From: Ruditapes philippinarum
Lineage: Eukaryota
Length of the DNA stretch: 64,000 nucleotides
Assembly: GCF_026571515.1 (NCBI RefSeq)
Contig: NW_026851633.1
Location: 434,001 to 498,000, forward strand
Direction of reading: 5' to 3'
The notes beneath the pieces were generated by a model. That model was not told the origin of the DNA. It worked only from the letters and a program-made list of their open reading frames with translations, and searched no databases. Shown piece after piece: positions 39,368 to 48,059 of this stretch (its first letter is position 1; each line of letters starts with the position of its first letter). The position numbers were made by a program, and so were the translations under genes.

Positions 39368-42300
39368 ATGGGCGGAATTCGAGTGAGAAATCTTCCAAAA
39401 AATGTGACAGAGAAACATTTGAAGATATATTTCTCCAAACGAGAGAATGGCGGCGGAAAAATCAAGAAAATATACTACCCACTCTTCAACAATGATGCTG
39501 TTATTCTGTTTGAAGATAAGAAAGGTAAGATTATAATACATAATGTATGAAGTAAGAAAATAAGATTCCTATTTGAATGTAAGGTTACTTTTGATAAAGT
39601 ACCCAATAATAGCAGTCTAACTCTTACATTATGCTGACTGTAGTCTTTTGTTAACTGGATACCACTTGCATCGAAGTTTTTCTCTAAAATCCGGAAGGTA
39701 GCACTGTGCAGCTTACTCTGAAAGAAAACAGGCAGTAAAAATCTCTTAAATCAAGCTTTTATCGCCTATACAGCATTTGTATTTATACAAAACTAAATTA
39801 CTGATCAACATTGGATTACAAAGATATGTGCTTGTTAGTATCTGATGTAGAATTCCAAGAGAAAAGGAAGAAATATCAGTACTGAACGTACTGGAAAGTT
39901 GGACAATAACTAAGCATACATTTATAGAACATGTATAAACAACAACAACTGTTGATGCTCTCAACTTTATTAAGTGTTTTGTATGCTCTTAAATGTGCTA
40001 CATGCATATCAATGTTGATTAAATGCTGTAAATAAATGTAATTATCTACAGTATTACATGATTAACCCCTAAACACGATCATATTACCCAGTATTGCCCA
40101 CTTTAGGGAGTATTGCCCAGTTGGCTGGTACTGAAAAATTTAAGGCTGGCATTAGATTTGCATGATTGGCATTTAAGGTTGGCATTAGAATTGCATGATT
40201 GAAAGCTGGCAACAGACTTGTTTCCAAATAAAACGACTATGCTCTGAAATAATGTGTGTACAATATGAAAATTCTTAGCCCTAGAGATAGCTGATTTGCT
40301 TTAAACTAAGATATGCACATGTTTTGCTAAAAAAATACAGCAGGCATCGTGACCCTTCTCTAGAATAAGGCACAGTTAAGCATGCTGCATGCATGATAGG
40401 TTTTGCTTTAAAATAAAGTAGACTGCTTCTGTGTCTAGAATAAGGCAGGCAACAGCTTTGCTTTTAAATATTGCAGGCCACAGCATTGCCCAAATATCAA
40501 TTGGTGAAATTGCTCTCTAAAATAAGGCAGACAGCAAAGTTTCTCTGAAAATTAAAGAGTTAACAGTTTTTACTTAAATGTTTCAATAAGTCTGTAATTT
40601 TTCTACACCCGCACAACAAAGTTGTAACAGGTGTATACTAGAATCAGCTCGTCCGTCCGACCGTCTATCAGTTTTTCCTTGTCCGCCCAATAGCTTAAGA
40701 ATCCTTTGACCCACAGTCTTCATATTTGGTTTTGAGATTGATCATGATAAGTATATGACCCCAGTTGATTTTGAGGTCACCAGGCCTAAGGTCAAGGTTA
40801 CAAGGACTTTGACTATAAAAAAACATGTCCACCCAGCCATAGTCTTCAAATTTGGCATGGAGGCTAGTCATGATAATTAGATGACCCCTCTTATTTTTGA
40901 GGCCACTGGGTCAAAGGTCAAGGTCACATGGGCCTTGACTTCAAAAAGCTTGTCCGTTCAATTGCTTTACAATGCTTTGGTCAACTGTAATTTAACCTTT
41001 TACCCCCATGAGCATATTGCGAAAAATGACCGTTTTCATTGAAAAGCCTCCTGTAACAAGTTCAAACTGCTATTAAACTATGAAAATGCTTCAATACTGA
41101 TGAAACTTGGCACAAATGTTGACTAAACCATAGCCTCTGTAACAGCATGCTCAATCGTAAATTTCCTGTGAACATGGCAACGGGGGGACGTCTCAAAATT
41201 GCCAAAAATCACAAGGGAAAAGGTTAATATTGAGGTTGGTAATGACTAGTCGATGACCTTTTTTGATTTTGAGGTCACTAGGTCAAAGTTCAAGGTCAGA
41301 AGGGCATTGACTAAGAAAGCTTGTCCATCCCATAACTTAAGAATCCTTTGACCAACAATTTTCATATTTGGCATGGAGGCTAGACATGACCATAAAATGA
41401 CCACTATTGCTTTTTAGGTCACTGGGTCAAAGGTCAATGTCACAGCGGCCTTAACTTAAAAAGCTTGTCCGCCCAAAAACCTTAGAATCCTTTGACCCAC
41501 ACTTGTCATATTTAGCATGTAAGTTGATCATGACCATTAGGTCTAGGTCACATGGGCCTTTAGTCCAAAAAGCTTGTCCGCTCAATTGATTAAGAATGCT
41601 TTGAGGTCAGGAAGTCAAAGGTTAAGGTCACTTTGAATCTTTACCACTAAAAACATGTAGAATACATATCATAACTTAGAAATGCACTGACTCACTACCC
41701 TCAGATTTGGTAAGGAGGTTGTCTTTGAGCTCTAAATGACCACTGTTGATTCGGTTGTCTTTGAGCTCTAAATGACCACTGTTGATTCTGACAAATTGGT
41801 ATGCGGGAGTATTTAGGCCATGGCAGTGGGAGTTCTAGTTGTATTTATTTTTGTACTCATTTCAGTTATTGACAGTATTCTGAAGATTGAACATCGTTTT
41901 GTTGTACAGGAACTTCCAGAACACATGGTAAGTAATTAACTGCCTTTATATTATATCTTCCATTGTCTGAATTAAGAGAATAAGTTATCTTTTCTATTGT
42001 TTGAATGATTGAATTATGATTAACTTTTCTTAACTTTATCATTTATTTTTGGAAAGGATTCATGCTCGGACAAAACAACAAGTGTGACTAGACAGACCTA
42101 TTAAAATTAAAAACAGAAAAAACTTAATTTCTTTTCTTTAATTTTCTTTTTAAAGATTTGTTTAAACTGTTAATTTGTTTGCTTTTAGAAAAAGTAAAAA
42201 AAGACAAGCGTTGCCCCCGCCTGGCGGTGGCTCTTGTTATATTATATGAATAACCTATTGATATTATGATGATGATATTTGTGTAATAAAGCTGTATGTC

Positions 42301-45300: not shown

Positions 45301-48059
45301 ATTAGGAGATGAACTTTCAGAAAAGGGGCGACCCGAGGTAGTACAGATTTCTCTAAAACGTATACTAAGGGCGCTTCCTTAGGTTTTGATAGTATTAACC
45401 CATCTTCATCTAGTGAAAAATGGGCAATACCAATTTCAAGAAGGCGTTCCTCCTCGTTAAGTCGAGCAACAGACAAAAGTAGTGGAGATATAAGAAAATA
45501 TGATCCTCAAAAGGGAGAGTTTGTTAGTGAAACGAAAACAAAGCCAGATACAACAACGGGAACCAGCAGTGTTGTTGGAAAACACAGGGAACGCTCTGGT
45601 TCAATGAATACAAGACCTAAAAAAGATACCAGTCAAAGTTTAAGGAACACAATATCTGGAGCTACAGGAGAAAAAATGTCTGAGTCCCTAAGACATAAAA
45701 CAATGCTGTCACCTTCTTCAGACACTAGAAGTAACACCCCACCTAAAATTAAAGCCTCTCTTCTCACTTCTGACAAACTGAAACTACATAAGTCCTCTCC
45801 AAAAAGATCAGAACATTTCGGCCAGCGAACAAGTGACGATTATGGAGCATTCACACATGCTGGGAAAACCAAAGCATCTTATGGAATGTACACAGATACC
45901 AGTGAAGATGATGAAGAATTTGGTTTAAAGAGTTTACCAGCTGACCTTCATAAATATTCATATCGGGAGAAATTTCTTCAGAGTTCAACTGGAAAGCCAG
46001 AAGTTTGTGCCATTTGCCTTGATGATGTTAGAGATCCTAAAAAGCTAGCAAAATGTAATCACAAGTTTTGTCGTGCATGTATTGAAAGACATTTCAGGAG
46101 CTCGAAACCAAGTTGTCCGACATGTGGAGCACTATATGGTAAAGTTACAGGTGATCAGCCACGAAATGGACGCATGACGCAATTCACCGACCGTAGCCGT
46201 TGCTTACCTGGATACGAGCGTGAAGATGGAATGATTGTCATCACTTACACATTCCCAGATGGTATGCAAGAGGTAACGCGCTAATTTTGTTCAATATTTA
46301 GATTAACTTTATTTATCTTGTCACCTTTTTGAACCAGATTTATACTTTTGTCTTTTATTTCCTTGTTATTTGAAACTAGAAGACTAGATCTGAGGGAATA
46401 TATATACAGCTTGGTGCATTAAAATATGTGTAGTTAGTAAGTTACATGTCTATGTGTTATAGTTTTACATCCTAGATACTTTTTGATTTTAATAAGGTTT
46501 TTTAGCTTAACTATTAAAAGAGTAGTAGCTATAAAAAAGTAGTAGCTATCCTACTCATCTGGGCATTGATGTCAGTGTTGGCATAACAGTTAGATCTAGT
46601 GAGAATAGTCAAACAAGCTGTTGTACAGACGGTTCATTTATTTATTTCAGGCCCTGATTTTTGTATCCCTATTTTTATTTTACTTTGTATTTATAATTTC
46701 AAAGTAATGATAAATAAGAATGATCTGATTTGCACTAAATAAAGTAATTTATATGATTTCGTTGTATTGTTTAGTCCTGCCATCCGCAGCCTGGACGTAG
46801 CTACAAAGGTATCACACGTAAAGCCTTCTTACCAAACAATACCGAGGGGCGGGATATTTTACGTCTGCTCAAAAAAGCCTTTGATGCTAGACTGGTCTTT
46901 ACAATAGGTGACTCCAGAACAAGTGGAGATAGAAATGTACTAACATGGAATGATATTCACCATAAAACAAGCATTGGAGGAGGCCCTACAAGGTATGTAA
47001 TTTTTGATATTCTTAAAAAAATTTTTATGTGAGCAGAGGACATAATACTGACAAGTTTTAATCTCTGACCATCTTGGCTGATCTTAGGCTCAGTAAATTG
47101 TTGTGTCATTAATACCCATATTTGAAAACTCACTGATGAATGGCATGACATGAGTGTGAAAATTTGAATGCATAGACAAAGAAATTGCCATACTTGTATA
47201 TTTACGTGGACCTGAAGGAATATGTTTGTTAAGATTTTTGTGTTGTCTGCTACAGAGTAGTGACAACATATAGGGCTCATGCAGTCTGTCAATCTGTTCA
47301 TCTTTCCATCAGTCTGTCCTTAAGTCACAAAACTTGTCCCGACTAATGCTGAAAAACACCTTGTCCAATTTAATCCAAACTTTACAGGAATGATCAGTAC
47401 CAAGTTAAGTTGTGCATATTGTCAGCATTTTCCAGTTCAGTGATTTTTGTCAGAGTTATAACCCTTTAATCATTTTATGTTTTATAGTTTTGTCAATACT
47501 ACTTTTCTTGCACTACAATTTGAGTGAAACTACAGAATTGATCGATACCTCAAGTACTTGCACATACATGTATTTAACAGGTTTTCCAATTGAATGTTTT
47601 TTAACAGAGTTGTGGTTGAATTAAAAAAGCATTTTGGCCAGTTAATGAATTTTGTGTCTCCTGCTACACAGTAGCTGCATTATATTACAAAATAGCCATG
47701 ACATATAGTGAACAAACTGTCCAATAACCATTCAATACAGCTGCTAAATTGGCTATCATGTGAACACTGATTGCTCTCAAATATAGTACAGACAAACACA
47801 GTGATGGGAAACAAAAATTCTTGGTTTTTGTTGACAGATAATGGTTTCTTTAGCAGGAAGGTTTGTGTTTAAATTATTTGTATAAGATTTTATATCTATG
47901 GTTTTTATATAAATGATACATGTACTTTTAATTTACAATCGACATTATTAAATTATATTTATAAACATTTGTATTGTCAGATTTGGATACCCAGATCCAG
48001 GTTATCTTCAGCGAGTGAGAGACGAACTTGCAATCAAGGGCATCACAAGTGACAAATAG
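39368..48059 (+). CDS. DTX3L: Deltex-family (DTX3L-like) E3 ubiquitin ligase with N-terminal RRM/KH-like region, internal macrodomain, C3HC4 RING and DTC domain; frame broken at ~45146-45315
   Basis: Exons 39368-39524, 41866-41927, 42627-42824, 43527-44850, 45114-46272, 46775-46992 and 47981-48059 (~1065 aa). RRM-like [20 protein letters not shown]; macro [141 protein letters not shown]. Orthology to vertebrate DTX3L is approximate. Confidence 0.85.
40598..41840 (+). mobile_element. Degenerate HINE element in an intron of the Deltex gene
   Basis: 5' TTTTTCTACACCCGC hairpin, GTCC microsatellite, several GGTCAAAGGTCAAGGTCAC monomers, and 3' GCGGGAGTAT...TCTAGTT. Confidence 0.7.
40996..41223. 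mobile_element. TTAA-flanked (piggyBac-type) MITE nested in the HINE
   Basis: TTAA|CCTTTT...AAAAGG|TTAA. It interrupts the monomer pattern, and a related copy lies at 18715-18930. Confidence 0.65.
42877..43123. mobile_element. Degenerate TA-target MITE
   Basis: TACTGTGAATTCA...TTTTGTGG and CCACGAA...TGATTTCACA are imperfect inverted ends with repeated TTTGTGG/CCACAAA. Confidence 0.5.

Follow-up and report, generated by a model that had tools for sequence, protein, structure and literature searches.

A 64,000-nucleotide stretch of the Ruditapes philippinarum genome (contig NW_026851633.1, positions 434,001 to 498,000; hereafter the window, to which all coordinates refer) contains, on the plus strand between 39368 and 48059, a seven-exon gene that encodes in one chain an RRM, a KH-like domain, a linker, a macrodomain, a second linker, a C3HC4 RING finger and a Deltex C-terminal (DTC) domain, as judged from Pfam searches of open reading frames and AlphaFold models of relatives. 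It is a real, expressed bivalve gene. By the sequence features tested its predicted product is a DTX3L-like ligase of the Deltex family, distinct both from vertebrate-type DTX3L and from the macroPARPs. We consider that the chain is probably a one-chain equivalent of DTX3L plus the first macrodomain (MD1) of PARP9, that is, a macrodomain-bearing DTX3L-like ligase whose catalytic steps would follow those of the human enzymes.

The exons lie at 39368–39524, 41866–41927, 42627–42824, 43527–44850, 45114–46272, 46775–46992 and 47981–48059, and all six introns have GT..AG ends. By Pfam, exon 1 matches RRM_PARP14_3 (E=1e-11) and exon 4 matches Macro (E=3e-22); exon 5 holds a zf-C3HC4 match (E=4e-11) and the beginning of DTC, whose main match (E=7e-32) falls in exon 6. 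Orthologs aligned by tblastn follow the exon order of the window, with the exception of the 62-nucleotide exon 2, for which the match is weak (E=0.19, one of five queries). Over the macrodomain region the nearest named relatives are those of Mya (67% identity) and Dreissena (63%), and both orthologs are single chains. An ADP-ribosyltransferase (ART) or PARP domain (PF00644) was not found in the open reading frames of the window or in the orthologs, and the chain ends at the DTC domain; no WWE domain is among the Pfam matches listed for the orthologs. Identity as a PARP9 or PARP14 gene was rejected, there being no ART domain. An original prediction, made from the letters of this DNA alone, had proposed a single exon chain with RRM, macrodomain, RING and DTC and with no PARP catalytic domain; the Pfam matches, splice ends and ortholog exon matches bear this out, and the motifs that it quoted (IHHKT, RDEL and a macrodomain motif) are present in the window.

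In the ligase half the RING is followed directly by the DTC domain, as in the Deltex family. The RING (46006–46125) has all the ligands of the C3HC4 pattern; the DTC domain begins at the end of exon 5 (46147–46272, Pfam DTC positions 1–39), has its core in exon 6 and ends, with the stop codon, in exon 7. Its best match in the PDB is DTX3L (3PG6, 89.7 bits), against 70.6 bits for DTX1 and 66.7 for DTX2. Roles have been described for DTX3L residues H707, E733 and Y719 (PMC10810221, PMC11460948). By alignment the equivalent of H707 is the first His of IHHKT (46958–46960), and spacing and conservation place the equivalent of E733 at 48024–48026, 26 residues further on, as in DTX3L; the His and last-helix Glu named in the original prediction are thus intact. 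Both are kept in 90 of 100 macrodomain-bearing RING-DTC rows, window included. The Y719 position, in exon 7, is Phe in the window and likewise in 12 of 13 rows without a macrodomain. In a FastTree phylogeny of 113 RING-DTC rows, with a weak backbone, the vertebrate rows nest with macrodomain-bearing echinoderm and sponge rows (support 0.92), and the window clade falls elsewhere.

The macrodomain occupies the second part of exon 4 (44454–44850), up to loop 2, which opens exon 5 (45114–45147, where nine of ten residues match the Mya and Dreissena orthologs). Its best sequence matches in the PDB are PARP9 MD1 (74.4 bits) and PARP14 MD1 (66.7 bits), compared with 15.5 bits for MD2 of the same chain and 49 for MacroD-type domains. 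When nine macrodomains of the mollusc clade were compared with the PARP14 proteins of frog, fish, coral and shark, MD1 had the highest score, ahead of MD2 and MD3, in 35 of 36 pairings, including all four that involve the window. The top Foldseek matches of the Mya ortholog model are PARP14 MD1–2, the DTX2 RING-DTC and the DTX3L DTC. Macrodomains of the hydrolase type carry Asn or Ser and Gly on either side of loop 1, and a hydrophobic and an aromatic residue in loop 2 (PMC10221186). In the window these are N (44541–44543), G (44565–44567), V and Y (together 45116–45121); the full signature is likewise present in the four closest full-length relatives (P0001, P0002, P0004 and P0005). Change of PARP14 G832 to Glu blocks macrodomain activity (PMC10499325), and by alignment we infer that the loop-1 Gly of the window holds the same position. 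The window macrodomain is thus probably, as far as sequence can predict, an ADP-ribosyl hydrolase of the PARP14/PARP9 MD1-like type; the likeness to PARP14 macrodomain 1 noted in the original prediction is upheld by the PDB scores, the four MD1-best comparisons and the signature.

The N-terminal part of the chain begins with the start Met and first part of the RRM in exon 1 (75% identity to residues 19–71 of the Mya ortholog P0001); the coding segment is preceded by an acceptor AG at 39353–39354 and followed by a donor GT at 39525. The RRM ends in exon 2, which was placed by its AG/GT ends and phase fit together with the tblastn match; a 784-nucleotide contig from run X5 (see below) that reaches 437 letters upstream of exon 3 fits exons 1 and 2. 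On the model of relative P0098 the RRM fold is matched with Z of about 12. Exon 3 encodes a single KH-like domain (71% identity to P0001 98–163). AlphaFold models of two relatives give it the topology beta-alpha-alpha-beta-beta-alpha, in agreement with the KH-like label of the original prediction; Pfam returned no match for it in the window reading frames, and a KH fold is not among the fold-search matches listed, where macrodomain and RRM matches filled the rows. ESM Atlas look-alikes of the domain (KH_I_RBM43, 0.79–0.80) provide a lead only. Among the domain assignments of the predicted chain the KH label is the weakest.

Two disordered linkers separate these units. Linker 1 (43527–44453, exon 4) is Ser/Asp-rich (18% Ser) and about 300 residues long, and includes a tandem duplication of 2x39 nucleotides (43767–43844, repeat family D5). 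Linker 2 (45337–46005, exon 5) is Ser/Thr/Lys-rich, about 220 residues long and in open frame. In the AlphaFold model of P0001 the confident units span residues ~21–92 (RRM), 102–172 (KH-like), 467–686 (macrodomain) and 963–1150 (RING-DTC), with residues 176–458 and 688–957 disordered (predicted local distance difference test score, pLDDT, <50). A conserved RRxSSL motif (45442–45459) is kept in the window and in four of the seven relatives searched, though linker 2 otherwise diverges. The motif resembles what we take to be a basophilic kinase or 14-3-3 site, and could be regulatory.

The end of the macrodomain raises the question of whether the two halves are truly joined. Exon 5 starts in the macrodomain frame and its first ten residues fit the orthologs; from 45148 to about 45336 frame shifts and stop codons then affect all three frames, and a remnant (VTSIVLV) fits the orthologs in a shifted frame. 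The caution in the original prediction that the frame is broken in this assembly was therefore correct. Contigs were compared over 41850–48250 from four runs of four studies: X1 (DNA), X5, X12 (type guessed as RNA; it contains no intron) and X16 (RNA on record). Record 6 of X1 aligns with 44981–45147 and 45337–47395 and has 229 letters between them, against 189 in the window; record 10 of X12 aligns with 44602–44847 and 45337–45625, with 266 letters between, against 226 in the spliced window. Each carries 40 extra letters, and with these the macrodomain and RING frames are in register (261 and 267 being multiples of three). Because both runs carry the extra 40, we read the gene as encoding an in-frame macrodomain-RING chain of ~1078 residues. 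The coding length becomes 3237 nucleotides (1078 amino acids plus the stop), and GVYG and RRxSSL stand 123 residues apart, compared with 130, 123, 123 and 122 in four orthologs. Its length and depth imply 266 letters for record 24 of X5 as well. X16 runs from 45337 to 46200, through the RING, and its 132 letters upstream differ from the window. Two bins span the break: in both, the contig depth of X5 and of X12 equals what the flanks alone contribute, and in the second bin that of X16 does too. X12 record 12 shows both the exon 5–6 and the exon 6–7 splice, and X5 record 26 the first of these; no single RNA contig extends from macrodomain to RING, and X12 records 10, 11 and 12 overlap by 27 and 22 nucleotides.

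We are nearly certain that the break is an assembly error. Were it instead biological, the assembled individual would carry a decayed allele or pseudogene giving an RRM-KH-macrodomain product with no ligase, an explanation that we regard as highly improbable. The stops and shifts do stand in the window itself, relatives that end before a RING-DTC exist (P0116, P0127, P0129, P0147, P0149 and P0003), and a rare haplotype matching the window could exist beyond the contig matches listed. Yet depth arithmetic indicates that 45148–45336 is uncovered at 88% likeness in all three RNA-type runs, and no X1 piece among the matches listed covers it. The damage is confined to 189 nucleotides between long open reading frames, and X1, which has three contigs of 474–614 nucleotides identical to the window, differs at this place. 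With the register restored in X1 and X12 and single chains in Mya and Dreissena, the claim that macrodomain and RING-DTC belong to one protein holds.

Of the single-base exon differences between contigs and window that were listed and checked, 14 of 20 are silent (three adjacent changes at 46182–46184 were left out). A separate cluster lies within 44 nucleotides at 46166–46209, with seven differences in X1, seven in X5 and six in X12, although elsewhere X1 agrees exactly with the window; the assembly may be of low quality in a second place here, or the cluster may reflect a different allele.

The breadth of the architecture was surveyed by a full HMMER search with P0001, its matches scored by local profiles; the ranking favors the architecture of the query, so that the counts describe breadth and not natural frequency. 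Macrodomain matches of <=50 bits or <=130 residues were dropped before counting. Macrodomain and DTC occur together in 114 of the 152 proteins retrieved, from sponge to amphioxus; for 15 of the 114 the alignment used for the tree contains no complete RING-DTC row. Word-index searches had found relatives in two of 117 and four of 429 candidates, and the wide spread was seen only by full HMMER. Thirty proteins were looked up: the 23 named ones with macrodomain and DTC are all invertebrate (sponge, annelid, bivalves, gastropods, cephalopod, echinoderms, hemichordates and amphioxus), and no vertebrate protein with both was found among the 30, the three vertebrate matches being without a macrodomain. 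The design is widespread in invertebrates and is not new. At least one macrodomain with the full signature is present in 83 of the 114 database proteins (84 of 115 with the window); because so many keep a hydrolase-type macrodomain, the predicted coupling of writer and eraser looks ancient. Where there are two macrodomains the signature is found in 26 of 33 first domains and four of 33 second domains. In a mostly nematode cluster of the ESM Atlas, all 50 members carry DTC and 70% carry Macro, which we treat as a lead only.

Several further observations concern this wider family. In proteins with three macrodomains the signature is confined to the middle domain, which carries it in 12 of 13 cases; it is absent from the first and third domains of all 13. 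Mya has at least three macrodomain-RING-DTC proteins (P0001, P0176 and P0177), each on a contig of identical length, and scallop and brittle-star paralogs (P0013, P0054 and P0010) have three to five macrodomains. The relatives without RING-DTC named above belong to the same macrodomain clade as the window; some exceed 1000 residues, and P0003 has no RRM-KH start. They may be truncated records, isoforms or natural ligase-less paralogs. By commonest phylum, the Atlas clusters with macrodomain and DTC are those of Cnidaria (61 members), Mollusca (74) and Nematoda (50). Other Pfam modules are joined to MD1-like macrodomains in P0179, P0188, P0189, P0196, P0197 and P0198; such fusions presumably include a salmonid AIG1/GIMAP-type GTPase, a Mercenaria Ig/FN3 protein, a TRAF zinc finger, a DEAD helicase and a kinase.

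The core idea of the original prediction is already in print, as a computational remark. A preprint states that DTX3L lost its macrodomain when PARP9 arose (bioRxiv 10.64898/2026.04.23.720386); the available portion of its text gives the macrodomain one sentence, with neither residue analysis nor assay, and does not contain the strings 'mollus' or 'bivalv'. The novelty that the prediction implied for the architecture consequently falls away: the loss is stated there, and the design is common across non-vertebrate animals. In those parts of two reviews that were available DTX3L is described without a macrodomain (PMC13224862, PMC12687431), and PARP9 is reported from jawed vertebrates only (PMC10221186). 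In the literature searched, which largely leaves subscription papers outside its coverage, no biochemical study of an invertebrate macrodomain-Deltex protein was found.

How might such a protein work? If the chain stands for PARP9 MD1 and DTX3L together, mono-ADP-ribose would be written on proteins or nucleic-acid ends by a PARP on a separate chain, probably a PARP14-like enzyme of the mollusc. The RING would hold E2~ubiquitin, and the DTC domain would bind ADP-ribose or a nucleic-acid 3' end and transfer ubiquitin to a hydroxyl. The macrodomain, on its long flexible tether, would bind ADP-ribosylated targets and hydrolyse either ADP-ribose or the whole ADP-ribose-ubiquitin adduct, and the RRM and KH-like domain would bind RNA or oligomerise. 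One chain could then both write and trim the mark, as is thought for the PARP9:DTX3L dimer. MD1 of PARP9 and PARP14 removes the ADP-ribose-ubiquitin made by DTX3L, a coupling that has been called paradoxical (PMC10810221).

A number of findings weigh against this interpretation. In a macrodomain phylogeny with PARP macrodomains (FastTree, 104 macrodomains) the window falls in a clade of single-macrodomain RRM-KH proteins from cephalopods, gastropods and bivalves (support 1.0), separate from the expanded multi-macrodomain paralogs; this clade is not joined to PARP14 MD1, and the deep nodes are weak. Coral MD2 is as near as coral MD1 (patristic distances of 2.77 and 2.79), and VIA-align on the P0098 model, which itself has no signature, ties PARP14/PARP9 MD1 with bacterial MacroD-type domains (Z 26–27). 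Of the 114 family members 31 have lost the signature, among them the cephalopod ortholog P0017 and sponge P0114, and because of these losses hydrolase activity is, to judge from the residues, dispensable in parts of the family. Since only one KH-like domain is present, a contact with PARP14 of the kind made by KH2-3 of DTX3L may be absent. The extra 40 nucleotides are known by length alone, so a stop codon within them is not directly excluded, and no test of this gene was found in the literature joining DTX3L and oyster.

The lost signatures bear on the suggestion that the protein is a ligase that only reads, its macrodomain binding ADP-ribosylated targets with no hydrolysis and serving as a targeting arm like the WWE domains of DTX1/2/4. 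Among single-macrodomain rows the signature fails in 25 of 68 while the DTC His and Glu are 90% conserved; in the window clade a bulky residue, Tyr or Trp, takes the place of the first loop-1 Gly; and an eraser beside a writer is counter-intuitive. Human PARP14 MD1, however, has Tyr at the same loop-1 position and is active, and all four signature positions are intact in the window and its four closest relatives. We therefore think a pure reader unlikely. A quite different proposal is a housekeeping or developmental ligase acting on protein lysines (in Notch signaling, DNA repair or RNA quality control), with no immune role and with the ADP-ribose chemistry incidental. The placement of the window in one well-supported mollusc clade, unlike the expanded paralogs, agrees with this, as does the presence of the gene in spliced contigs of at least two studies (X12 and X5). 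As to a head-to-head linkage with a macroPARP, Pfam gave no PARP match in the 11 candidate exons upstream that were scanned, chosen by inspection among 100 listed open reading frames. Against it, both ADP-ribose pockets keep their catalytic residues, and the level of an Aplysia transcript labelled DTX3L, perhaps an ortholog, follows that of ZNFX1, RIG-I-like and PARP12-like genes (PMC8195618); we find the housekeeping proposal very doubtful.

The macrodomain-bearing equivalent of PARP9 MD1 plus DTX3L remains the reading that we prefer, and its setting would likely be stress or innate immunity. The antiviral role once suggested for the gene is an inference for which the Aplysia transcript provides the only molluscan hint: it belongs to an interferon-like co-expression module enriched for oyster immune genes, and the available part of the same study reports no correlation between Aplysia genes that rise with age and oyster genes with long-term increase after virus-like challenge (PMC8195618). 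A bolder version, offered tentatively and itself unlikely, makes the protein a self-contained cycle enzyme and the ancestral one-chain state of animals: the RING-DTC would cap ADP-ribosylated protein or RNA with ubiquitin and the chain's own macrodomain would cut the adduct off, either as proofreading or as release of free ADP-ribose-ubiquitin as a signal. In molluscs, echinoderms and amphioxus the one-chain form would have multiplied into many paralogs, and DTX3L and PARP9 would be the products of a later split. Such an enzyme may run without PARP14, because the nematode-rich Atlas cluster has Macro and DTC and nematodes are reported to lack PARP14 (PMC10221186).

The human system leaves open why an ADP-ribose eraser (PARP9 MD1) sits with a builder of ADP-ribose-ubiquitin (PMC10810221). 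In this natural single chain both sites are apparently intact, so that a single recombinant protein and a pair of point mutants would serve to test the question, and the family offers natural active-type, dead-type and tandem macrodomain variants. What gives the gene, one member among many, its interest is the biochemistry and the dating of the coupling to early animals.

The surroundings of the gene were also inspected. On the minus strand, a multi-exon gene at 19500–30800 stands head-to-head with the ligase gene; its product is Ser/Arg/Pro/Lys-rich, probably coiled-coil, with GRxTPT repeats, and had no convincing Pfam match, and we take it to resemble MAP9/ASAP. Exons at 3095–5935 (minus strand) have weak ParcG (PACRG-like) matches (E=0.001 and 0.009). 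Downstream lie a broken reverse transcriptase of the long interspersed nuclear element (LINE) type (51024–52723, plus strand, RVT_1 E=1e-15) and a decayed Ty3/Gypsy-like element that retains traces of gag and integrase (54600–61480, minus strand). Repeats in the introns of the ligase gene (40678–41790, 42050–42570 and 47200–47700) include high-copy elements, over which the summed contig depth is very high, and a repeat family with a ~144-nucleotide unit lies within intron 1.

Set beside known systems, the chain resembles human DTX3L in its N-terminal RRM and putative KH-type domain, its C3HC4 RING, its DTC, which is nearest to that of DTX3L, and the catalytic His and Glu. It differs in having one KH-like domain and one macrodomain where human DTX3L has five KH domains but lacks a macrodomain, and in its two long disordered linkers and the Phe in place of Y719. 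What the human DTX3L-PARP9 dimer achieves by bringing MD1 and RING-DTC together, the window chain has built in. The MD1 domains of PARP14 and PARP9 (PDB 3Q6Z, 3VFQ and 9QYD) are the best sequence and structure matches and share the loop-1/loop-2 signature (identity to frog PARP14 is ~36%); the chain has no MD2 or MD3, WWE or ART domain, and in the tree its clade is not joined to MD1. Family proteins with two macrodomains mostly show the predicted eraser-then-reader order of PARP9. In DTX1/2/4 an ADP-ribose-recognising module is likewise tethered to RING-DTC, but there it is a WWE domain and here a macrodomain; WWE domains are not known to have hydrolase activity. Comparable macrodomain-bearing DTX3L-like ligases include amphioxus CAH1249985.1 (annotated DTX3L) and Mya arenaria LOC128211381, and the closest published counterparts in layout are the early-branching macrodomain-bearing DTX3L orthologs, which have the same RRM, macrodomain and RING-DTC chain with no ART domain (bioRxiv 10.64898/2026.04.23.720386, Fig. 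1d).

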